This document shows, piece after piece, positions 3,667 through 54,848 of a DNA stretch of 64,000 nucleotides. The DNA lies in contig JAMLHB010000003.1 of the NCBI GenBank assembly GCA_023957375.1, forward strand, positions 5,830-69,829. The letters run 5' to 3'. A program made the position numbers and the translations under genes. This DNA comes from Flavobacteriales bacterium (GTDB lineage Bacteria > Bacteroidota > Bacteroidia > Flavobacteriales_F > PHOS-HE28). Each line of letters begins with the position of its first letter. The first letter of the stretch is position 1. The notes beneath the pieces are model-generated. The model made no database searches. It was not told the DNA's origin and saw nothing but the letters and a program-made list of their open reading frames with translations.

Positions 3667-3942
3667 ATGCGGATCCTGAAGGCCACCTACAATGAACTCC
3701 TTGGACGAGACGAGTGGATCATCAAGCGCAAAGCGATCATACAACGCGATGGAGGAGCTTGCCGCAACTGTGGATCAAGGGACCACCTTCAAGTTCATCA
3801 TCGGCAATATCACAAATGCCCAAAAACCGGATACAAAGTCGCGCCATGGTGCTATGCGGATCAATACCTGATCACGCTGTGCAACAATTGCCACAAACAA
3901 GGTCACCACGTTCATCACGTCCCCTGCTTCACAGTTAAATGA
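3667..3942 (+). CDS. Small HNH endonuclease (92 aa)
   Basis: MRILKATYNELL...CRNCGSRDHLQVHH...LCNNCHKQGHH is a Cys-box/HNH motif. Its stop TGA (3940-3942) overlaps the next ATG (3939-3941). Confidence 0.7.
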   Translation: MRILKATYNELLGRDEWIIKRKAIIQRDGGACRNCGSRDHLQVHHRQYHKCPKTGYKVAPWCYADQYLITLCNNCHKQGHHVHHVPCFTVK

Positions 3943-4532
3943 TCTTTAAACCCCCTGTTGCCATGAGCTTCATGAGCCGTATCTTCCAAAGAGCAGAAAA
4001 GGACACCGCCACTAAGGTGGCTGTAGCACCAGTTGATTTGGCGAATCCCACCACAACCCTCGTGGAACAGGAACTTTTTATTGACCGGGAACCACCCAGC
4101 CCCACCAAGGAATCCATGCGGACCCTCACCCGATTGGAGGAATTGGCCAGCACTGACCACCGAGAAGCGGGTCGCTTGGATGGGTTCACCTATCATGACA
4201 TGACGATTTGTGGCCAAGGGATAGAGCGGATCAAAGCCGAAATTCGCTGTGCTCTGGAGCAGGAGGTGAATCGGATCGGTCGATTTGTTGACCTGTTGGA
4301 CGTGGAGATCCGAAAGATCCAGGACACCGGCAGCGCCAATTTACTTCTTGACCTTCAGGCCAATCGCGACCAAATGGAACGGGATCGCTATCGGCTGAAC
4401 GAACAGCAGATGCTGGTCGTGGGCAACTCAGGTCTTGCCGACCTCCCGACAACCACGTATGAAGCCGGATTCCGACAGGGATATCGGGAATACTTGGAAT
4501 CCATGAACTTCATCCTAAAATACCAGGGATGA
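3939..4532 (+). CDS. Hypothetical protein (197 aa), translationally coupled to flanking genes
   Basis: ATGA overlaps at both ends (3939-3942 and 4529-4532). No motif recognised. Lower GC than the flanks. Confidence 0.55.
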   Translation: MIFKPPVAMSFMSRIFQRAEKDTATKVAVAPVDLANPTTTLVEQELFIDREPPSPTKESMRTLTRLEELASTDHREAGRLDGFTYHDMTICGQGIERIKAEIRCALEQEVNRIGRFVDLLDVEIRKIQDTGSANLLLDLQANRDQMERDRYRLNEQQMLVVGNSGLADLPTTTYEAGFRQGYREYLESMNFILKYQG

Positions 4533-5613: not shown

Positions 5614-6642
5614 ATGCCTGTCAATAAGCACGCCCTGATCCGCTACCAAACCTTGGACCGCTGCTTTGCAAGTCGCGGCAGGCAATACTTCTTGGATGAT
5701 CTGTTGGAGGCATGCAACGAAGCCCTATTCGAGTATGACAGCAACGCAAAGGGCATTTCCCGCAGGCAGCTCTTCGAGGACATCAAGTATATGGAAAGCG
5801 CCCAAGGGTGGTCCATCCCGCTTGAACGGATCAAGGAGGAAAACAATCGGACCTGGTACCGTTACGCAGAACCTGGTTTTTCCATCAACAAGCAGCCGAT
5901 CAACGTGGATGAAGCCGCCCTGCTCAAGGAAGCGTTGCTCACCATGGGCCGCTTCAAGGGCATGCCCCAGTTCCAATGGGTGAATGAGCTCATGGTCCGA
6001 TTGGAGGCCGGATTCGGATTGCGGCAAGGTGCGGCGCATGTCATCGAGTTCGAGGAGAACCCCTATTTGAAGGGAAGTGAGCAGATCACCCCACTCTTTC
6101 ACTTCATTCTGGGAAAGCAGGTCTTGGCTGTGGAATACCAGAGCTTTAAGCATCCTGCCCCAACTTCTCTCCGTTTCCATCCATATTACCTGAAGCAGTA
6201 CAACAACCGGTGGTTTATTCTTGGCTGGAATGAACTCCTGGGGCGGCTCACCAATTTGGCGCTGGACCGGATCCAATCGCTTCGCCCGGTGCAAGGGGAA
6301 TTCCTACCCAACAGCGCCATCGATTTCTCCGAATACTTTGAAGACGTGGTGGGAGTTACAGTGCCGGAAGGGTCCGTGGAAAACGTGGAACTTCTGGTCG
6401 GTGGATCGTTATGGCCCTACATCGAGACGAAACCTCTGCATGGGTCGCAAAAAGTGATCTCACGGGATGAGGCGGGTGTTCGGGTGAAGTTGCAGGTGAA
6501 ATTGAACCATGAACTAGTGGCGTTGATCCTTTCCTTCGGAAGTGATGTGGAAGTGCTAAAGCCACCCACGCTCAGGGCATCCATGGCAGACCATGCGAAG
6601 GCAGCTCAATGCCGTTACCAAAAGAGCAAAGACCATGAGTGA
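5614..6642 (+). CDS. WYL-domain transcriptional regulator (HTH-WYL-WCX, BrxR/CapW-like)
   Basis: The N-terminal HTH region runs from MPVNKHALIRYQTLDRCF. The WYL signature is FHPYYLKQYNNRWFILGWNELLGRLTNLALDRI. Its stop TGA 6640-6642 overlaps the ATG of the next gene at 6635. Confidence 0.75.
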   Translation: MPVNKHALIRYQTLDRCFASRGRQYFLDDLLEACNEALFEYDSNAKGISRRQLFEDIKYMESAQGWSIPLERIKEENNRTWYRYAEPGFSINKQPINVDEAALLKEALLTMGRFKGMPQFQWVNELMVRLEAGFGLRQGAAHVIEFEENPYLKGSEQITPLFHFILGKQVLAVEYQSFKHPAPTSLRFHPYYLKQYNNRWFILGWNELLGRLTNLALDRIQSLRPVQGEFLPNSAIDFSEYFEDVVGVTVPEGSVENVELLVGGSLWPYIETKPLHGSQKVISRDEAGVRVKLQVKLNHELVALILSFGSDVEVLKPPTLRASMADHAKAAQCRYQKSKDHE

Positions 6643-22638: not shown

Positions 22639-22660
22639 GGGGCGCGAAAGTACGGGCGGC

Positions 22661-26108: not shown

Positions 26109-26232
26109 GGTTGTCAAGGCGTGGTTCGCAGTTGTCAGTTGTCTGTTGTCAGGCTTTCTGCGACCAGCCTCCGACCACTGACAACCGACAACTGACAACT
26201 GACAACCGAAAACTGATCACTGAGAACTGCCC
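26109..26232. repeat. Heptamer repeat array with inverted partner
   Basis: gttgtcaaggcgtggttcgcagttgtcagttgtctgttgtcagg ... ctgacaaccgacaactgacaactgacaaccgaaaactga. Confidence 0.7.
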
Positions 26233-29777: not shown

Positions 29778-31514
29778 TCACGGAGCGTTCCTCCCGAAAA
29801 ACACAAACCCGTTCTTGCGGTATAGCTCCTGCAATCCGGGGATGGCCGCCACTTCTTCCGCGCTGGTCACCTTGCACATGACGTACACTGGCCTGCCCAC
29901 GTTGCCGGTGAGCAGCCAATTTTCGCTCTGCACGCGGGAGTCGGTGATGGGCGGCATGCGCGTGTAGAACCACTGCGCGTAGCTCTTGTAGCCCTTGGTC
30001 ATCACGTAGCAGGTTTCGCCCTGCCGCTGCTGGAAGAATTCCACGGCCGCACGCTGCGAATACCCTTCGATGCGGTTGATGAAATAGTACAGCGTGATGG
30101 TGACGAACAGCGCCGTGCCGCCGAACACCGCCACGATGCCGCTGCGGTATTCGCGTTTGGCGAAGAAGCGGTGGCCCAGATAGAGCACCACGCACATCCA
30201 CACGCCCGCCAACGCTTCCCAGCCGCTCCAATGCACTTCCGCCATCAAGTTGCCTTGCGCGAAGGGGTCGCTCTTCAACAACGGAATGATCCATTCCGGG
30301 TGCATGCCGATGAACGGCAACACCAACGTGACCAGCGCGAAGAGCGTGCCGATACCGCCCATCAGCAGCCGCGACCACAGCGTGGCCCTCCCGCCGTTCC
30401 ATAGCCGCTCCAATTGCAGCGCCGCGAGGAAGGTGAGCGGGAAGTAGCACAGGCTGCTGTAGTGGACGATCTTGGTCTTGACGATGCTGAAGAGGATGAA
30501 CACGACCCAGAAAAGGATGAGGAGCCACTTGCGGTAGTTGTCCGTTGTCCGTTGTTGATTAGCTCCCTCAGCGGTCTCCCGAAGGGGACCCTGAGGCAAA
30601 GGGTGCATACAAGGTCCGCTGCGCGAGACCTTGATGGAGCTAGTTCCCCTGACTATCTCCTGCAGGGCAAAGACCGATGCGGGGAAGCAGCCGATGAGCA
30701 GCACCACGAAATGGTAGCCGAAGAAGCCGCCGTGGCCGGCATCCTCGGTGCTGAGCATGGCCACCTGCCGCCAGAAGAAGGCGGTGAAGAACACGGGGCC
30801 GTTGCGCAGCAGGTCCGCGCCGAACCACAGGCCGGGCACTAACAGCAGCACGCCCAGCATCAACAGCACGCGCGGGATGGAAACGTAGAGGCGGAACCGG
30901 TTCCACACCCAGTACACCAGCGCGCACAGCGCGGGGATCAGCACGCCCACCGGCCCTTTGGTGAGCACGGCCAGCCCCATCCAAAGCCCGGCCATGGCTG
31001 CGGAAAGGTTCTTCCTCCGGGCTGAAAGACCCGCGCTGGCCGGTGTGTCGGTGCTGCGGATGAACCCCAGGAAGCCGAGGAAGATGAAGAAGTTGAACCA
31101 GGGATCGATGATGCCGCTGCGGAAGTAGAGGTTTGGCAGGATGGAGCCGATATAGGCCAGCACCCAGAGCAGCCCGAAGCTGCGGTTGCGCAGCCGCGTG
31201 CCGATGCGGAACAGCACCAACAGCGTGGCCACGCCGCACAACGCGTTGGGCAGGCGCGCCGCAAACTCGCCCACGCCAAACACCGACATGCTGAGCGCCT
31301 GCATCCACATAAAGAGCGGCGGCTTCTCATAGAACGGCACATAGCCGATCTGCGGCTGCAGCCAGTTGTGCGTGGCCAGCATCTCCCGCGCGATCTCCGC
31401 GAAGTTGATCTCGTCCCAATCGAACAGGTGTACCGCACCCAAGCCGGGCACAAAGAGCAGCAACGCCAACAAGGCGATCAGCCACGAGATGCTGCGGTTG
31501 GACAGGCCCTTCAT
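29778..31514 (-). CDS. GT39/GT83-family glycosyltransferase (ArnT/PMT-like), carrying an in-frame repeat insertion
   Basis: MKGLSNRSISWLIALLALLL...DEINFAEIAREML...YFEKPPLFMW is ArnT/PMT_2-like. A ~42 aa insertion (RGTSSIKVSRSGPCMHPLPQGPLRETAEGANQQRTTDN) is encoded by the palindromic element. Confidence 0.75.
   Translation of the reverse strand: MKGLSNRSISWLIALLALLLFVPGLGAVHLFDWDEINFAEIAREMLATHNWLQPQIGYVPFYEKPPLFMWMQALSMSVFGVGEFAARLPNALCGVATLLVLFRIGTRLRNRSFGLLWVLAYIGSILPNLYFRSGIIDPWFNFFIFLGFLGFIRSTDTPASAGLSARRKNLSAAMAGLWMGLAVLTKGPVGVLIPALCALVYWVWNRFRLYVSIPRVLLMLGVLLLVPGLWFGADLLRNGPVFFTAFFWRQVAMLSTEDAGHGGFFGYHFVVLLIGCFPASVFALQEIVRGTSSIKVSRSGPCMHPLPQGPLRETAEGANQQRTTDNYRKWLLILFWVVFILFSIVKTKIVHYSSLCYFPLTFLAALQLERLWNGGRATLWSRLLMGGIGTLFALVTLVLPFIGMHPEWIIPLLKSDPFAQGNLMAEVHWSGWEALAGVWMCVVLYLGHRFFAKREYRSGIVAVFGGTALFVTITLYYFINRIEGYSQRAAVEFFQQRQGETCYVMTKGYKSYAQWFYTRMPPITDSRVQSENWLLTGNVGRPVYVMCKVTSAEEVAAIPGLQELYRKNGFVFFGRNAP
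30533..30660. repeat. MITE-like palindromic element inserted in-frame in the GT39 gene
   Basis: Heptamers gttgtccgttgtccgttgtt, terminal inverted repeats gattagctcc...ggagctagttc, and internal hairpins cctcagcggtctcc-cgaag-gggaccctgagg and caaggtcc-gctgcgcg-agaccttg. Confidence 0.6.
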
Positions 31515-31626
31515 GCGGTGCCGAAGGTAGCGGCGTAAAACGCGTTGCCTTTCCGCAGCGGGCCGGCATTAGGACACGAGCGTGGACGCTCGCGTCAGAG
31601 ATGGGATGGATTCAGCGTGGTCAGCG

Positions 31627-32539: not shown

Positions 32540-32734
32540 TCTTTTGGCGGGCTACTTTCTTCTGTCCGTTTGATCCTCGTGCAGGTACTTCGCTTCGAGA
32601 CCCTAATCCTCCCGCAAGGTCTTCGCATCGAGACCCCGCAGTTTGCGCGATGCCGCGGTGAAGCTACGCCAATATCAACCCGTAATGTTTTGGTGCGCAG
32701 GGTCCAGAAACGGAGACACTGAGCGAAGGTAAAG

Positions 32735-32955
32735 AGCCTTCATGCGGTGCCGAAGGTACCGGCGTAGACCGCCTTGCCTTTCCGTAGCGGGCCGACATTA
32801 GGACACGAGCGTGGACGCTCGCGTCAGAGATGGGGACACTGAGCGAAGGTAAAGGGCCTTCATGCAGTGCCGAAGGTAGCGGCGTAAAACGCGTTGCCTT
32901 TCCGCTGCGGGCTGGCATTAGGACACGAGCGTGGACGCTCGCGTCAGAGATGGGG
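32735..32955. repeat. Two tandem extra copies of the ~105 bp GT39 5' leader (hairpin + start codon region)
   Basis: Both copies match 31503-31620 (cttcatgcggtgccgaaggtagcggcgtaaaacgcgttgcctttccgcagcgggccggcattaggacacgagcgtggacgctcgcgtcagagatggg) with few mismatches. Confidence 0.85.
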
Positions 32956-34555: not shown

Positions 34556-34635
34556 TTGGCAAAGATGGGGGAGTTGCCACCAACGGGATGAACAGATCAC
34601 GCAAAGTATGGATAACTTACGCGAAGCCGCGAAGG

Positions 34636-34785
34636 GGGTACTCCAAGAACGCTTGTGGCAGGCACTTGGCAAATACGATGCCTCACGCGAAGCCGCGAAG
34701 GCGCGAAGGGGGTACTCCAAGAACGCTTGTGGCAGGCACTTGGCAAATACGATGCCTCACGCGAAGCCGCGAAGGCGCGAAGGAG
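34636..34785. repeat. Tandem direct repeat, ~75 bp x2, with downstream inverted partial copy
   Basis: gggggtactccaagaacgcttgtggcaggcacttggcaaatacgatgcctcacgcgaagccgcgaaggcgcgaag occurs twice. ccttcgcggcttcgcgtg lies downstream at 34830. Confidence 0.8.
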
Positions 34786-38819: not shown

Positions 38820-38920
38820 GGGGCAAAGGTGGCATGGAACGGTTTGGTACACGGGCGCAGCCTATGTTTGTTCGTTGGCTTGCGTTCACAGCCACGCCCG
38901 TTGCACCCGGCCCGCGCCCG

Positions 38921-40891
38921 ATGAAGCCCCTATTTGCCCTTGTCCCGGCGATTTTCCTCACCTGCGCGGCATCGGGGCAGGACCAACGGGACATCGATTC
39001 GTTGAATGCACTGCTCGACCGGCATTGGGCCATGAAAAAGGAGTTGGGGATATTGCATCCTTCGCTGTATGACACCTCGGCCGCGCTGATCCTTCACAGT
39101 TTGTTCGAGGCCACCTGGGCCAATGACCCCGATCAGGCCATGGCGTATGCCGAACGGTACCTGGAATTGTCAAAACAAATCGGGTTCAAGCGGGGTGAAG
39201 GGAATGCCTACAACGCAATTGGCGCGGCGCTTGGCTTAAAAGGGGATTATTCCCGGGCCATGGAGTACCTGGGCAAGGCGCTGCAGGTCCGGGAGGGGCT
39301 TGGGCTTCCGGAGCATGTGGCCGAAACCCACAACAACATCGGGTTCGTGTACCAAGCGCTGGGGAAATTCCCGGAGGCCACCCAAGAGCATCTCGCGGCC
39401 TTGCGCATTTTCGAGTCGACCGGGAATAAGAGCCATCAAGCGAGGATCCACATGAAGCTGGGCTCCATGCTGGCCGAGGTCGGCGATTACCGGGCATCCC
39501 AAGGGCATTTCACCCAAGCCCTGGCGTTGGCCGAGGAGGCCGGCAATCGATCCATCATTCCGGACATCCACAGTTCGGCAGGGCAGGGGTATGCCCTGGA
39601 GGGGGATTACACCAAGGCCTTGGAGCACCATTTCGCCGCCCTCGATGCCGTGCAGGAAAGCGGGAGCACCTCTTCCCTTGCGTTCTCCTACAGCGCAATC
39701 GGATTCACTTATTGGCACCTGGAATTATATGAGGATGCCATGGAATACACCAAAAAGGCATTGGGCCTCTACGATCAATTGGAAAGCAATGAAGGCAAAT
39801 GCCAAGCTTACCAAATGATCGGGGCCATCCATCAGGTACGGAAGGAATACGCCCAGGCCCGGGACAACTACCAAAAGGTCCTGGCCCTATCCAAGGAAAT
39901 CGGCAGTTACCGCTATGCGGCCGGCGCCTTGCTGGACCTTGCCGAAATGGACAGCACGCAGGGCAACTTCCGTGAAGCCCTTGGGCACTATAAGCTGCAC
40001 ATCGCCGCGCGCGACAGCTTGCAGAAAGCCGAAAACCGCTCCAAAACCACCGAGCTGCGCATGCAGTACGACTTCGAAAAGAAGGAAGCCGAGGCCAAGG
40101 CCCTTGCAGAGGCTGAACTGAAAAAGCAGAAGCTGGTGCGCAACAGTTTCGTCGGGGGCTTCGGCGCCATGCTGCTCTTTGCCGCGGTGGTGTACCGCCA
40201 GCGCAACAGGACCAAGAAGGAGAAACGCCGCGCAGAAGAGGAAAAGGAGCGCAGTGACCGGCTCCTGCTCAACATCTTCCCGAAATCCGTCGTGCAGGAG
40301 ATCAAGGCATCGGGCACCGCGAAGGCCAAGGCCTACACCATGGCCACCGTCATGCTCACCGACTTCAAGGACTTCACCACCGTGAGCGACCAGGTGAGCG
40401 CGGAACTGCTGGTGGACGAGATCCATACCTGCTTCAGCGCCTTCGACCGCATCATGCTGCGGCACGGCATCGAAAAAATCAAGACCATCGGGGATGCCTA
40501 CCTCTGCGCCGGCGGGCTGCCCGTGAGCAACTACACCCACGCCACCGACATGGTGAGCGCCGCCCTGGAGATCCGCGACTACATGCTCCAGCGCAAGCAG
40601 GAGAAGCAGGCACGCGGCGAAACGCCCTTCGAAATGCGCATCGGCATACACACCGGGCCCGTGGTGGCAGGCATCGTGGGCACCCACAAGTACGCCTACG
40701 ACATCTGGGGCGACACGGTGAACATCGCCGCGCGCATGGAGCAGAACTCCGAGCCCGGCAAGATCAACATCAGCGAAAGGACGTACGCCCTGGTGAAGGA
40801 CCGGTTCCAGTGCACCCACCGCGGAAAGATCCAAGCCAAGAACAAGGGCGAGCTCGACATGTACTTCGTGGAGGCGCCGGGCGCCGCGTGA
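38921..40891 (+). CDS. Class III adenylate/guanylate cyclase with N-terminal signal, TPR repeats and a TM segment
   Basis: TPR-rich N-terminal half, a TM helix (FVGGFGAMLLFAAVVY), and the cyclase domain (TIGDAYLCAGG, IWGDTVNIAARME). Confidence 0.8.
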   Translation: MKPLFALVPAIFLTCAASGQDQRDIDSLNALLDRHWAMKKELGILHPSLYDTSAALILHSLFEATWANDPDQAMAYAERYLELSKQIGFKRGEGNAYNAIGAALGLKGDYSRAMEYLGKALQVREGLGLPEHVAETHNNIGFVYQALGKFPEATQEHLAALRIFESTGNKSHQARIHMKLGSMLAEVGDYRASQGHFTQALALAEEAGNRSIIPDIHSSAGQGYALEGDYTKALEHHFAALDAVQESGSTSSLAFSYSAIGFTYWHLELYEDAMEYTKKALGLYDQLESNEGKCQAYQMIGAIHQVRKEYAQARDNYQKVLALSKEIGSYRYAAGALLDLAEMDSTQGNFREALGHYKLHIAARDSLQKAENRSKTTELRMQYDFEKKEAEAKALAEAELKKQKLVRNSFVGGFGAMLLFAAVVYRQRNRTKKEKRRAEEEKERSDRLLLNIFPKSVVQEIKASGTAKAKAYTMATVMLTDFKDFTTVSDQVSAELLVDEIHTCFSAFDRIMLRHGIEKIKTIGDAYLCAGGLPVSNYTHATDMVSAALEIRDYMLQRKQEKQARGETPFEMRIGIHTGPVVAGIVGTHKYAYDIWGDTVNIAARMEQNSEPGKINISERTYALVKDRFQCTHRGKIQAKNKGELDMYFVEAPGAA

Positions 40892-40979
40892 ACGGTGTGC
40901 CCGCCGCCCTGCATTGGCAGCAGCCGGAACGGCATTTACCTTGGCTTCGCCGGAACAGGCAACTCCTAGTTACCGCCCC

Positions 40980-41522
40980 ATGCACAAGGCACGGATCATC
41001 CTGAGTGACACGGAAAGCCTCGCCACGCTCGGCTTCTTCATCCTGGCCACCTTCACATTGGCATCCGCCGTGCGCTGGCTCATGCGCAGGCGCATTGAGC
41101 GGAAGCTGGCCGCAGCGGAGGCCGACCTTACCGTGTACAAATTCATCCGCGACCTGGTCACGCTCACCATCTACCTGGTGGGCATCGGCTGGGCCTTGCT
41201 CACCCTGCCCATTTCCGCCACCTATGCCCACACCTTGCTCGTCAGTGCGGGGGCATCCACCCTGATCATCGGGTTCGCCTCCCAGCAGGTGCTGGGCAAC
41301 ATCATCTCGGGCATCTACCTGGTCATGCGCCGGTCCTACCGGCTGAACGACATCATCGAGATCAATGGCTCCAAGGGGAAAGTGGTGGAGATCAACATCC
41401 ATGAAACCGTGCTCACGTCCATGGACGGCAAGCAACGGATCACCATCCCGAATACGCTGGTGTCCACCGCGATCATCATCCACCACCAACAGGCCGCAAC
41501 TCGTGGCACCGGGCCTTCATAA
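40980..41522 (+). CDS. Small MscS-family mechanosensitive channel homologue (short C-terminus, possibly truncated)
   Basis: MscS core LVTLTIYLVGIGWALLTL...RLNDIIEINGSKGKVVEINIHETVLTSMDGKQRITIPNTLV, but it ends soon after this. Confidence 0.55.
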   Translation: MHKARIILSDTESLATLGFFILATFTLASAVRWLMRRRIERKLAAAEADLTVYKFIRDLVTLTIYLVGIGWALLTLPISATYAHTLLVSAGASTLIIGFASQQVLGNIISGIYLVMRRSYRLNDIIEINGSKGKVVEINIHETVLTSMDGKQRITIPNTLVSTAIIIHHQQAATRGTGPS

Positions 41523-41586: not shown

Positions 41587-42579
41587 ATGAGCATCCTTCC
41601 CTCCCGCTCCTTGCCCATCCGGTGCAAGCGCAGCCCTCGTGCAGCGGCCGGCCTGGCCCTCGTCATCCTGGCCTCCTGCTCCAGCCCAAAGAGCCTGCAA
41701 CCCGGTGCGGACCGCAAGATCAATTGCAACCTGCAAGCGGATCATCAATATGCGGCCGGCGACCTGCCCGTCGCCCTTCATGAAGTGGCCGTGGAGCCGC
41801 TGCTCACCGGGCACTTCAGCAAGGCAAGCCTCAACGTGGCGAACAGCATCGGCGTCCTGGACCTGCTGGGTGAATACACCCGCTTGAAGCAAAAACAACG
41901 GGCCATCCCCAGCCTGGAGCAGAAGGTGGAGCTGCTCGAACTTTCCCACACCATCACGCAACGCATCGATCTGGCATCCTTGGAGATCTCGTCCGTGACA
42001 GCCGAACTCGACTGCGAGGAGGAGCGCATCTCACAGATCGCCGATTACCTTACGGCTCGGTCCCGAACGGCGGAAACGCGACTGACCGTGGCCGCGATCG
42101 CCGTGGGCGCGTTCGGCTCCATGACACCCATCATCCTGGACGGCAAGCAAGCCGACCGGGCCGGCTTGGCGGCGGGCATCGCCGAAGCGGCACTGGGTGC
42201 CATGATCCTGCTCAACGACCGCAAAGTGAACGTGCAGCATCCGCGCAACGCACTCAGTGACATCTGGGAAGGGCCACAGACATCCCGCGTCTTCCCGCCC
42301 TTTGTTTGGTACTATCTGAATTACCGGGATCCGGGCGACCAGGCCAGCGTCTCCTTGCGCACCAAGATCATCGACCAATGGAAGGGGTTCGGACAGGTCG
42401 AACGGTTGAAGCCCAAGGAACAGGCAAGCCATCAGGAGCTGTATTTCGGGAATGGCGGCCGCTACGACACCGACCAGTTGTACAACCGCGCCAATATGTA
42501 CGACCAGCTGGAATCCTCGATCAAATTGATCAAGCAGGACCTCACGCAGCTGGCGCTGGAATTGGGGGGGCTGCAGTAG
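41587..42579 (+). CDS. Hypothetical lipoprotein
   Basis: Lipobox LALVILASCSS. No recognisable domain. Confidence 0.5.
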   Translation: MSILPSRSLPIRCKRSPRAAAGLALVILASCSSPKSLQPGADRKINCNLQADHQYAAGDLPVALHEVAVEPLLTGHFSKASLNVANSIGVLDLLGEYTRLKQKQRAIPSLEQKVELLELSHTITQRIDLASLEISSVTAELDCEEERISQIADYLTARSRTAETRLTVAAIAVGAFGSMTPIILDGKQADRAGLAAGIAEAALGAMILLNDRKVNVQHPRNALSDIWEGPQTSRVFPPFVWYYLNYRDPGDQASVSLRTKIIDQWKGFGQVERLKPKEQASHQELYFGNGGRYDTDQLYNRANMYDQLESSIKLIKQDLTQLALELGGLQ

Positions 42580-42635
42580 GAGGTACCCGGCAACAAGCAG
42601 ACCGCCTCCCTCTTTCCTCCCCACCTTTGCCCCAT

Positions 42636-42707
42636 GCAGGAACTGATCGAACAAGCGTGGGCAGACCGCTCCCTGTTGAAGGACCCCGAGGTGATCCGCG
42701 CCATTTA
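42636..42707 (+). pseudogene. Duplicated 5' fragment of dapD (first ~23 codons, then a stop) left of the vapBC insertion
   Basis: atgcaggaactgatcgaacaagcgtgggcagaccgctccctgttgaaggaccccgaggtgatccgcgccatttag nearly matches dapD 43557-43628. The upstream ttgccccatgcag motif is also duplicated. Confidence 0.8.
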
Positions 42708-42834
42708 GGGCGTGTTGGAGCACCTGGACAAAGGCTCGGATACAGGGAGTAGCGGCGAGATCCTGATGATGGGCAACCTCCGCAAACCATTCAAGCTGAA
42801 TTACGTATGTTTTTATTACATTCGCACGTAATCC

Positions 42835-43086
42835 TTGAAGATGAATACCAAGCTGACCTTGAACATCGATAAGGGTGTGATTGAAAACGCCAAGGTTCTC
42901 GCGAAGGAGACGGGGACCAGTCTATCGAAATTGATCGAGAACTACCTCCGGTCCCTTGTCCAGCCAAACAAGAACAAATCGGCGATCACCCCCTTGGTGA
43001 AGAGCCTGACCGGTGTCATGCCTGCACAAGATGAGGAGCGTGAAAAGGACGCTCGGTTCGATCACTTGGCGAACAAGTATTCCTGA
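42835..43086 (+). CDS. Type II antitoxin (VapB-like), in a lower-GC insert
   Basis: 83 aa, partner of the downstream PIN toxin. Its stop overlaps the toxin ATG by 1 nt. Confidence 0.6.
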   Translation: MKMNTKLTLNIDKGVIENAKVLAKETGTSLSKLIENYLRSLVQPNKNKSAITPLVKSLTGVMPAQDEEREKDARFDHLANKYS

Positions 43087-43490
43087 TGGAGAAAGTCTTC
43101 GTGGACACCAACGTTGTCTTGGACCTCCTACAGGAACGCAAGCCATTCTTCAAGGAAGCACAACAACTATTCTCCATGGGTGATCGCGGGGAGTTGAAAT
43201 TGTTCATCTCATCGCTAACGGTCGCAAACACCCATTTCATGCTCGCACGGCATCTGCAGATGGAGGCACGCCAGGTATTGTCCAAGCTTATGATCGTATT
43301 GGATGTTCTTCCCTTGGATGCGAAGGTCCTGAAACTTTCATTGGCATCAGACTGGAAGGACCTTGAGGATGCCATCCAGTACTTCACGGCCGCGGAGCAT
43401 GGGATGCATGTGATCATCACACGTAACAAACGTGACTTCAAAGGCTCTCTGCTTCCCATTCTTAGCACAGGGGAATATCTGCGTCGCTAA
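43086..43490 (+). CDS. vapC: PIN-domain toxin (VapC-like)
   Basis: MEKVFVDTNVVLDLL... with PIN acidic residues. Confidence 0.75.
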   Translation: MEKVFVDTNVVLDLLQERKPFFKEAQQLFSMGDRGELKLFISSLTVANTHFMLARHLQMEARQVLSKLMIVLDVLPLDAKVLKLSLASDWKDLEDAIQYFTAAEHGMHVIITRNKRDFKGSLLPILSTGEYLRR

Positions 43491-43556
43491 CCCGGGGCCG
43501 CTAGCCGCCATGTTGTACTTCAATGCCCGGTCCCGTATCATGGCCAACTTTGCCCC

Positions 43557-44390
43557 ATGCAGGAACTGATCGAAAAGGCGTGGGCAGACCGCTCCCTGTT
43601 GAAGGACCCCGAGGTGATCCGCGCCATTGAAACCGTGGTGGGCCAGCTGGACCGCGGGGAGCTGCGCGTGGCGGAACCAACCGACGGGATTCCGGGTCAA
43701 GCCCGGAATGACGGTGCGTGGAAAGTGAACGAATGGGTGAAAAAGGCCGTGCTGCTCTATTTCCCCATCCGCAAGATGGAGGTATTGGAAGCAGGCCCGC
43801 TGGAATGGCACGACAAGATCCCCCTGAAGCATGACTATGCGAAGCTGGGCGTGCGCGTGGTGCCCCACGCCATCGCACGGCATGGAAGCTACCTGGCCCC
43901 CGGCGTGATCCTGATGCCGAGCTATGTGAACATCGGCGCCTACGTGGACGAGGGCAGCATGGTGGATACTTGGGCCACGGTGGGCAGTTGCGCCCAGATC
44001 GGCAAGGGCGTGCACCTGAGCGGCGGCGTGGGCATCGGTGGCGTGCTGGAACCCGTGCAGGCCGCGCCGGTGATCATCGGCGACGGCGCCTTCATCGGCA
44101 GCCGCGCCATTGTGGTGGAGGGCGTGCATGTGGGCCGCGAGGCGGTACTGGGCGCCAACGTGGTACTTACCGCCAGCACGCGCATCATCGACGTGGCCGG
44201 GCCGGAACCCAAGGAGATGAAGGGCTACGTGCCGCCGCGCAGCGTGGTGATCCCCGGCACCGTGCCCAAGCGTTTCCCCGCCGGGGAGTACGGCGTGCCC
44301 TGTGCATTGATCATCGGGCAGCGCAAGGAAAGCACGGACCGGAAAACGAGCCTGAACGAGGTGTTGCGGGAGTTCGATGTGGCCGTGTGA
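43557..44390 (+). CDS. dapD: 2,3,4,5-tetrahydropyridine-2,6-dicarboxylate N-succinyltransferase
   Basis: MQELIEKAWADRSLLKDPEV... followed by hexapeptide-repeat left-handed beta-helix (GAYVDEGSMVDTWATVGSCAQIGKGVHLSGGVGIGG). Confidence 0.8.
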   Translation: MQELIEKAWADRSLLKDPEVIRAIETVVGQLDRGELRVAEPTDGIPGQARNDGAWKVNEWVKKAVLLYFPIRKMEVLEAGPLEWHDKIPLKHDYAKLGVRVVPHAIARHGSYLAPGVILMPSYVNIGAYVDEGSMVDTWATVGSCAQIGKGVHLSGGVGIGGVLEPVQAAPVIIGDGAFIGSRAIVVEGVHVGREAVLGANVVLTASTRIIDVAGPEPKEMKGYVPPRSVVIPGTVPKRFPAGEYGVPCALIIGQRKESTDRKTSLNEVLREFDVAV

Positions 44391-44393
44391 TCG

Positions 44394-44496
44394 GTTGTCA
44401 GTTGTCAGTTGTCAGTTGTCAGTTGTCGGTTGTCGGTTGTCGGTTGTCGGTTGTCTGTTTCTGGCGCCCCACCCTTACAACGAGCAACTGACAACG
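44394..44496. repeat. Heptamer tandem array (GTTGTCR x ~9) with inverted partial partner, between dapD and the response regulator
   Basis: ggttgtcagttgtcagttgtcagttgtcggttgtcggttgtcggttgtcggttgtctg ... caacgagcaactgacaacgaacaacc. Confidence 0.85.
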
Positions 44497-54287: not shown

Positions 54288-54725
54288 ATGAACAGGAAGA
54301 TCCTAGTTATGGCTTTGATCGGGGGGGGCGTGGCCTTCTGCTCCTTCGCATTCCGCCCTGCACCTACCGTACAAGGCGAACATGAAAACAACCTGAAGGT
54401 GCTGCCCAAGGACATCAGCCACGACGAGCTGATGCAGGTGATGCACAGCTTCGAGGTGGCCACGGGCATGAACTGCGGCGACTGCCATGCCAGTTCCGCA
54501 ACCGATCCCAGCAAGATGGATTGGGCCGCAGACACCGAACACAAGCAAACCACCATCGCTATGATGAAGATGGTGGCCGAGATGAACAAGCAATACTTTG
54601 CCGTGGAAGGCAACTTCAAGGACAACTACCTACAGTCGCAATTCGAGGTCACCTGCATCACCTGCCACAATGGGCATGAGGAACCGAGCAACTTGGTGAC
54701 GATCCCGATACCGGTGAAGAGGTGA
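54288..54725 (+). CDS. Small dihaem c-type cytochrome (periplasmic)
   Basis: Signal peptide. Two CxxCH motifs (CGDCH and CITCH). Confidence 0.7.
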   Translation: MNRKILVMALIGGGVAFCSFAFRPAPTVQGEHENNLKVLPKDISHDELMQVMHSFEVATGMNCGDCHASSATDPSKMDWAADTEHKQTTIAMMKMVAEMNKQYFAVEGNFKDNYLQSQFEVTCITCHNGHEEPSNLVTIPIPVKR

Positions 54726-54732
54726 GGGATGG

Positions 54733-54848
54733 ATTGTCAGTTGTCAGTTGTCGGTTGCCAGTTGTCAGTTGTCAGTTGTCCGTTGTCCGTTGTTAGGTGT
54801 TAGACGGTACGTCCGCCTGACAACGGACAACTGGCAACCGACAACTAC
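54733..54848. repeat. Heptamer tandem array with inverted partner between convergent genes
   Basis: gttgtcagttgtcggttgccagttgtcagttgtcagttgtccgttgtccgttgtt ... cctgacaacggacaactggcaaccgacaac. Confidence 0.85.

Follow-up and report, generated by a model that had tools for sequence, protein, structure and literature searches.

In the 64,000 nt of contig JAMLHB010000003.1 analysed here (Flavobacteriales bacterium, assembly GCA_023957375.1, positions 5,830 to 69,829 of the forward strand; referred to as the window), the dapD gene is preceded by a truncated copy of its own 5' end, and a two-gene toxin-antitoxin (TA) operon lies between this copy and the working gene. The truncated upstream copy is denoted c1 and the corresponding part of the working gene c2. 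As judged from the sequences of the window and its relatives, an intact type II TA operon, VapBC-like and composed of a DUF6364 gene and a PIN_3 gene, probably recombined into the 5' end of the resident dapD in an ancestor, with the assistance of homology. Comparison of strains indicates that c1 has since been the donor of a short gene conversion into dapD in the strain of the window. The main value of the locus is in this conversion of a lysine and cell-wall gene by its own relic, and in the possibility that gene-end duplications recur around an uncharacterised TA family.

The duplicated 5' end of dapD

The core sequences of both copies (Table 1) are identical at 79 of 81 positions at an offset of 923, and a repeat scan of the window recovers them within a direct repeat, D4, that is 90% identical over 109 nt (42621-42729 and 43544-43652, spacing 923). 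Both cores start 9 nt 5' of an ATG, at 42634 in c1 and 43557 in c2, and end after codon 24, where the c1 open reading frame is closed by an in-frame TAG (42706-42708). Allowing up to 25 mismatches, neither strand of the window holds a further copy of the 81-mer. The initial annotation, which had been made from the sequence alone, placed a duplicated dapD start upstream of the gene, and the alignment bears this out; its coordinates are essentially right, except that the ATG is at 42634, that the reading frame has 24 codons, not 23, and that the dapD segment is about 111 nt long, not about 90.

The greater length comes from the 30 nt that follow the core, the tail of c1, which are identical to c2 at 18 of 30 positions in ungapped, in-register alignment, where the random mean is 7.9 of 30. 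Of 20,000 random pairs from the window, 0.015% reached 18 of 30 (p ~1.5e-4). The translation of the tail (I*GVLEHLDKG, against IETVVGQLDRG in dapD) still matches dapD in frame, and the dapD-derived segment therefore runs from -9 to +102. Residues G26 and E29 of the tail are those of the consensus of related DapD proteins in the clade. Within c1, identity is 93-97% in the core and about 60% in the tail.

The working gene matches the NCBIfam model NF008808 over its full length (344 bits against a cut-off of 204, E 3e-103), with the Pfam domains THDPS_N_2 and Hexapep.

Separately from the repeat, dapD carries a perfect palindrome, ATTCCGGG-TCAA-GCCCGGAAT, at 43689-43709 (codons ~45-52), of which there is no further copy in the window. 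The palindrome, translated as GIPGQARN, falls in a variable DapD loop and may be an in-frame palindromic element. The motif PGQAR[NSH]D is present in the related DapD proteins P0244, P0248, P0255, P0262, P0274, and P0289 and missing from others.

The toxin-antitoxin pair

Between the copies the GC content falls to 0.47-0.53, against 0.60-0.68 in the flanks. The lower-GC DNA with a PIN toxin and a small antitoxin that had been annotated here is thus supported by both GC content and Pfam. The antitoxin gene comes first and its TGA stop overlaps the ATG of the toxin gene by 1 nt, a pairing that is kept in homologous loci. The matches of the toxin to PF13470 and PF01850 both exceed the gathering scores, and its acidic residues D7, D13, D33, E94, D95, and D117, invariant in 30 homologues, would correspond to the catalytic quartet of PIN domains. 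Both genes are intact and almost invariant among conspecific strains. The 5' inverted repeat has a comparable TACGTA/ACGTA pair 5' of the antitoxin in the homologous loci L181 and L107 (compared contigs and loci are given L numbers, proteins P numbers). From the intact genes, the conserved PIN acids, and the upstream inverted repeat, the pair looks functional.

With VapBC systems the pair shares the antitoxin-first operon of two genes with stop/start overlap, a 134 aa PIN toxin with conserved acids, a palindrome 5' of the operon, a GC content below that of the host, and a solitary chromosomal copy. It differs in that its antitoxin belongs to DUF6364, outside the classical VapB families, and in that the toxin is far below the cut-offs of the NCBIfam VapC equivalogs (best VapCLeptosp, 18.3 bits against 140); against the solved VapC structure 7by2 the match is weak (E 0.027). 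The description of the antitoxin as "VapB-like" is accordingly not upheld, as only residues 1-37 resemble CopG/RHH proteins, and weakly (E 0.12). No paper on DUF6364 was found in the literature searched. The closest non-conspecific toxin is only 62% identical, and plasmid-borne relatives are at most 36% identical.

The spacer at the left end of the insert (42736-42799) has no similarity to dapD, to the intergenic regions of relatives, or to other TA loci, and holds no plausible open reading frame. The flanks 42706-42840 and 43485-43556 have no similarity to other TA loci, to plasmids, or to the DNA between ruvX and dapD in relatives; six-frame translation of the insert flanks gives nothing informative, and Rfam has no RNA family in 42300-43800.

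Resident and incoming sequences

The two copies are preceded by different sequences, and the distribution of these in relatives indicates which is the older. TA-free relatives have a c1-type leader, CTTTCC..CCCCACCTTTGCCCC-ATG, as their native dapD leader, L192 securely and L092 probably, and the motif is present in L195 (CCCCACCTTTGC 5' of dapD). L192 is a 16.5 kb contig with a full-length, TA-free dapD (87% aa identity), the leader of which reads GCTTCCACCCCCACCTTTGCACC-ATG-CAG-GAA-CTG. In L092 the c1-type leader directly follows a lipoprotein orthologue that is 78% identical to that of the window. Outside the window species, the 57 nt that precede c2 (43491-43547) were found in L187 alone, and they are unlike the leaders of relatives. 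Since the c1-type leader is native in TA-free relatives and the c2 flank is restricted, c1 with its leader is, on this evidence, the resident sequence, and the TA operon with the c2 flank the newcomer. This upholds the placing of the insertion in the 5' end of a resident dapD. As to the uninterrupted lipoprotein-dapD junction that was to be looked for in related genomes, L192 provides a TA-free locus with a c1-type leader, while the junction in L092, which lies at a contig end, is only suggestive. L092 was at first taken as an empty site and was downgraded, leaving L192 as the secure TA-free comparator.

The age of the duplication can be judged from L187 (Logan SRR26512501, 4577-6000), a sister species with dapD 86% identical in nt and 89% in aa, and ruvX 82% identical in nt. 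Its interval contains, in order, remnants of the TPR protein, the last 137 nt of the MscS gene, what is left of the c1 leader (..CTTTCC..CCACC), an 18 nt deletion that has removed the ATG, c1 codons 4-13 as a 29 nt fragment, 26 nt corresponding to window 43522-43547 (24/26 identical), and an intact dapD. There is no TA operon and no lipoprotein gene. This scar places the duplication before the split of the two species and, most parsimoniously, the TA operon as well, which L187 would have deleted later. The event is therefore ancient, being common to a second species, and not recent.

Around dapD lies a variable hotspot in this clade of related Flavobacteriales, as judged from the genes found there. 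The ruvX-dapD interval is empty in L002 and L188, holds a GNAT gene in L191 (5298-5855), DNA-alkylation-repair and YCII genes in L195 (3717-4905), and MscS only in L192, where a ParE/ParD pair lies just downstream of dapD (5910-6477).

Conservation within the species

The arrangement c1-TA-c2 is present on 15 independent conspecific contigs, 97-99.7% identical and from different samples (JGI, ENA, NCBI, Logan), which were retrieved by exact-protein look-ups. Samples in which the species occurs include SRR31861155, SRR31850363, and JGI 3300009868. The gene order is ruvX (on the minus strand), TPR-guanylate cyclase, MscS, 330 aa lipoprotein, c1, DUF6364, PIN, dapD, response regulator, and histidine kinase. 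No TA-free contig is among them, and the exact pattern of an empty site (c1 leader, 66 nt, c2 continuation) has no hits in the JGI metagenome contigs; the arrangement is fixed in the species. An assembly artefact, the repeat of this metagenome-assembled genome having been collapsed or chimerically joined, might be suspected because repeats of this size break de Bruijn graph contigs and because L001 and L097 do end inside the repeat; it is refuted by the 15 independent contigs that span c1, TA, and c2 co-linearly at 99% identity.

Gene conversion between the copies

The c1 core is identical in all conspecific contigs that cover it. The other contigs that cover c2 have six differences between c2 and c1, and at four of these six sites (43580, 43585, 43586, and 43616) the c2 of the window carries the c1 state, with the nearest flanking sites, 43575 and 43577, remaining c2-type. 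At 43580, 43585-43586, and 43616 the other contigs have T, AG, and A, where the window and the Logan unitig L001 (SRR31861155) have G, CA, and G. The background divergence between strains is 0.3-0.7%, so that four changes within 37 nt, all towards c1, are implausible as independent mutations, and a gene conversion from c1 with a tract of 37-51 nt is indicated. The GAG codon for Glu10 is also found in the functional dapD of L187 and L092 and is hence ancestral, the change of Glu10 to Ala being due to the conversion. This accounts for the difference between DapD of the window and the common allele; a protein identical to DapD of the window does exist (P0241).

There is support for the converted state at the level of k-mers. 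Unitig L001 is 100% identical to 42676-43607 of the window, and starts and ends exactly 30 nt into the 51 nt stretch that conversion has made identical. L097 (SRR31850363) ends at the corresponding position of c1, a predicted k-mer boundary. In L187 the remnant of c1 is identical to its own c2 at 26 of 29 positions and has at least 5 mismatches to c1 of the window, which fits concerted evolution of the copies. The view of c1 as a decaying duplicate thus holds for its 30 nt tail, which looks decayed, but not for its core, which is identical across conspecifics and has donated a tract to dapD. An 81 nt leftover pseudo-copy would in this way be able to rewrite a presumably essential gene, in one strain exchanging Glu10 of DapD for Ala.

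Origin of the insertion

The architecture resembles known products of recombination, and homology-assisted recombination is the best guess as to the founding mechanism. The resident leader and first 34 codons of dapD would have been left behind as the truncated copy, which now ends at the TAG in codon 25, and the incoming DNA (~42736-43547) would have had a full 5' end of dapD behind it, which kept the presumably essential gene intact. This could have come about by Campbell-type integration, in which a circular DNA with the TA operon and a dapD 5' segment enters through a single crossover, or by one homologous crossover in dapD and one illegitimate joint at codon 34, that is, homology-facilitated illegitimate recombination (HFIR; defined in PMC3240628). 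The arrangement would later have become fixed in this species, while the sister lineage deleted the TA operon and retained a scar; the 81 nt cores would have kept exchanging sequence, and the working gene of the present strain would have received states of the pseudo-copy.

Both routes join a foreign segment by homology on one side, here dapD, and at an arbitrary point on the other, here codon 34, and neither needs a dedicated recombinase. If a circle integrates by a single crossover, the homologous segment is duplicated in just the way observed. Experiments have shown HFIR in E. coli conjugation and in a small number of competent species; it is not known from Flavobacteriales, and here it would be read from the product.

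The findings speak against transposition, capture by an integron, and site-specific integration. The insert unit holds only the two TA open reading frames and no transposase, there are no terminal inverted repeats on the insert, and the repeat of 81-111 bp is imperfect, unlike a perfect target duplication of 2-15 bp. No recombinase is encoded in the 923 bp unit or in the Pfam-annotated neighbourhoods of 16 kb, and a heuristic search of stop-to-stop segments of at least 150 aa found no tyrosine-recombinase motif in the 64 kb window. The insert had been called mobile, a description that does not hold up, since no recombinase, attC, terminal inverted repeat, or second copy was found and the closest toxin outside the species is as distant as noted above.

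The initial annotation had proposed a duplication of the target. A duplicate is present, but resident origin of both copies and arrival of a dapD segment on the incoming DNA are not discriminated. In a true target-site duplication, 812 bp of TA DNA (42736-43547) would have entered by an illegitimate or template-switching process that duplicated 111 bp of the resident gene, with later decay of the tail and homogenisation of the core. The clade-ancestral G26 and E29 would then mark the tail as an old resident copy with a few decay changes, core conversion is documented, and other loci of the TA family have duplications of 30-70 nt of terminators or gene ends. However, no known bacterial insertion machinery yields duplications of 111 bp, the insert is without a transposase or terminal inverted repeats, a newly placed copy of dapD would have needed a promoter at once, and the R33K difference involves all three codon positions (AAA against CGC), which is unusual for pure decay. 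Such an origin is considered unlikely.

The remnant of a site-specific island is less likely again. Islands and prophages specific for dusA replace the 5' end of that gene, leave a remnant of it, and use a dedicated integrase (Farrugia et al. 2015, PMC4482086). In outcome this is the closest analogue that has been described, since it shares insertion in the 5' end of a housekeeping gene, a new 5' sequence supplied by the insert, imperfect direct repeats, and an orphan upstream remnant. If an attP had mimicked the 5' end of dapD, c1 and c2 would be attL and attR, and the integrase together with the remainder of the island would have been deleted later, sparing only the TA operon as a stabiliser; that the flanks of dapD are a hotspot in relatives (GNAT, YCII, ParDE, and other genes) would be in keeping with this. 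The dusA islands, however, are tens of kb long, with a tyrosine integrase by the junction, a 21 bp att consensus, and detectable excision, whereas the unit in the window is 0.9 kb, with a repeat of 81-111 bp and with no recombinase found in it, in the annotated neighbourhoods or, by the motif heuristic, in the window. The inserts 5' of dapD in relatives are without an integrase or a second dapD fragment. Deletion of everything but the TA operon with both att sites spared would also be unparsimonious.

The reverse polarity, in which TA-dapD was resident and the block of lipoprotein gene, leader, and truncated dapD was imported upstream of it, has a junction geometry symmetric with that of the preferred recombination of the TA operon into dapD, and the cyclase-MscS-lipoprotein block is indeed missing from L002, L188, and L191. 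It is highly improbable, given that the low-GC segment is the TA operon and not the block and that one extra event is needed, and it is rejected on the distribution of the leaders, as the c1-type leader is native in relatives with differing upstream genes (MscS in L192, lipoprotein in L092; motif in L195) and the c2-type flank is confined to genomes with the TA operon or the scar.

Several points weigh against an ancestral, homology-assisted insertion of a functional TA operon. The contrast between core and tail in c1 may mirror the conservation of the gene itself, since the c2 sequences of the window and L187 are likewise identical at 77 of 81 positions in the core and 20 of 27 in the tail; a foreign tail can therefore not be told from one that is merely old, nor a duplicated resident segment from an imported homologue. 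L092, the contig of which stops 90 nt into dapD, is insecure as an empty site and does no more than suggest one. The scar in L187 shows the duplication and cannot prove that the TA operon was once there. Neither a donor arrangement (TA, c2 flank, and dapD, without c1) nor, among conspecifics, an excised or empty form was found. Toxin activity, operator, co-transcription, and addiction are all inferred from sequence.

Homologous TA loci in metagenomes

Eighty metagenome loci (L101-L180) that encode homologues of the toxin (47-59% identity) were screened for flanking repeats. Of ~70 testable loci, 19 or more have the TA pair between same-strand repeats of 30-145 nt, where the opposite-strand control gave only about 4 weak matches. 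In L107 codons 2-14 of the downstream XRE-type HTH gene are duplicated 5' of the TA pair (192-231 and 1095-1134, 88%), in L130 the terminal 71 nt of the gene upstream recur 3' of the pair (2867-2937 and 3917-3987, 89%), and in L105 and L180 terminator hairpins are duplicated. The closest homologues, L181 and L183, have no flanking repeats.

Arrays of attC-like palindromes are present in L120 (83-2411), L150 (553-2101), L151 (401-2442), L121, L171, and L174 (940-1088). Several of the arrays consist of 3-4 imperfect, locus-specific palindromes that open with ..YTAAC.. immediately behind the toxin stop and close with ..GTTR... TA cassettes of chromosomal integrons stabilise the flanking DNA, and a role analogous to this may be supposed for the TA pair of the window. 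It might be supposed further, from the pairs in arrays of 3-4 such repeats (L120, L150, L151, L174), that the pair in the window is itself a former integron gene cassette inserted at a secondary site beside dapD. There is, however, no attC, array, or integrase at the window locus, and the heuristic search found no recombinase motif in the window; integron recombination does not duplicate its target, and here the repeats on either side belong to the coding sequence of dapD. The region after the toxin (43480-43556) has no attC-like fold or hairpin, with z of +1.2 and +0.7 for the two strands against shuffles, compared with -3.3 in L120. A cassette origin, to which next to no probability could be given, is rejected for the window on folding.

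It can be proposed, as a decidedly doubtful generalisation, that DUF6364-PIN_3 pairs are a family of recombinase-free mobile cassettes that repeatedly land in the ends of host genes and survive there since insertion, or selection acting on it, duplicates 30-110 bp of the end; the window, L107, and L130 would be three independent instances. If this were true, the cassette repeats would serve precise excision, transfer by single crossover, and as a reservoir of variants that are converted into the host gene. Should the flanking duplications of gene ends be general for the DUF6364-PIN_3 pairs, they would point to a route of TA movement that is independent of recombinases.

Probable transcription and persistence of the insertion

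The locus appears to show in nature how a selfish TA operon can separate a biosynthetic gene, here a presumably essential one, from that gene's promoter and yet leave it active. The consensus of the Bacteroidota -7 element is TAnnTTTG. A strict search for it found no match; only CACCTTTG and CAACTTTG, directly 5' of the two ATGs, resemble it, so that a CA[C/A]CTTTG box precedes both, and CACCTTTG is a possible -7 box. A scan for σ70 promoters gave 0 sites, with a model that is unsuited to Bacteroidota, and a scan for intrinsic terminators gave 0 terminator-like sites in 42400-43800. Since there is no terminator between the lipoprotein gene and dapD, and a box is present at each ATG, dapD is probably transcribed from its own copy of the box and also by read-through from the old promoter at c1 and from the TA promoter, which would be autoregulated.

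The 81 nt repeats would allow precise excision of the TA operon, restoring the lipoprotein-dapD junction, and post-segregational toxicity from a stable toxin would select against the cells that had lost it. Loss that is penalised in this way would lead to persistence of the operon and would fit the lack of empty sites within the species; it would also fit L187, where loss of the TA operon would have accompanied wider decay. Such an insertion can, it would seem, persist across speciation and can also be lost, leaving a recognisable scar.

Features of the locus and its surroundings

The features described above are collected in Table 1.

Table 1. Features of the dapD locus, with positions in the window
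Feature	Position	Strand	Basis or remark
Upstream neighbour: predicted lipoprotein, 330 aa, signal peptide ending LASC	41587..42579	+	no Pfam family; homologues named lipoprotein/glycine-zipper protein
Resident dapD leader (c1-type flank), ending in CACCTTTG, possible Bacteroidota -7 box	42580..42624	+	same motif before dapD ATG in L192, L092
c1 core, dapD -9 to +72	42625..42705	+	79/81 to c2; identical across covering conspecific contigs
c1 tail: TAG, then diverged dapD codons 26-34 (GVLEHLDKG)	42706..42735	+	18/30 against 43629-43658
GC-rich spacer, left end of insert	42736..42799	+	no similarity, no plausible open reading frame
Inverted repeat ATTACGT-N19-ACGTAAT, AT-rich; putative TA promoter/operator	42800..42832	+	read from sequence
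Antitoxin, 81 aa, DUF6364	42841..43086	+	Pfam PF19891, E 2.9e-25
Toxin, 134 aa, PIN_3/PIN	43086..43490	+	PF13470 E 3.3e-17; PF01850 E 3.3e-10
Right flank of insert (c2-type), ending in CAACTTTG	43491..43547	+	unlike c1 flank; last 26 nt in L187
c2 core, functional repeat copy, dapD -9 to +72	43548..43628	+	alignment, repeat scan, contig comparison
dapD, tetrahydrodipicolinate N-succinyltransferase, 277 aa	43557..44390	+	NF008808; THDPS_N_2 and Hexapep
Minimal conversion tract, c1 to c2, DapD Glu10 to Ala	43580..43616	+	four sites compared with other conspecific contigs
Predicted junction sequence, empty site: CCCCACCTTTGCCCCATG..GCCATTGAAACCGTGG			
Predicted junction sequence, circle or tandem: CATGGCCAACTTTGCCCCATG..GCCATTTAGGGCGTG			

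Between ruvX and the lipoprotein gene there are a gene for a TPR-guanylate/adenylate cyclase fusion (38834-40891) and one for a small MscS-type channel (40914-41522); it is these that form, with the lipoprotein gene, the block missing from three of the relatives.

Intergenic arrays of a 7 nt unit (GTTGTCA/GTTGTCG) are present at 44389-44455, directly after the dapD stop, at 54714-54807 and 26110-26150, and near 22660 and 30530. The window also contains a family of 120 nt repeats in three copies, two of them in tandem (31476-31595, 32705-32944), and a separate 74 nt tandem duplication, 99% identical, at 34620-34767.

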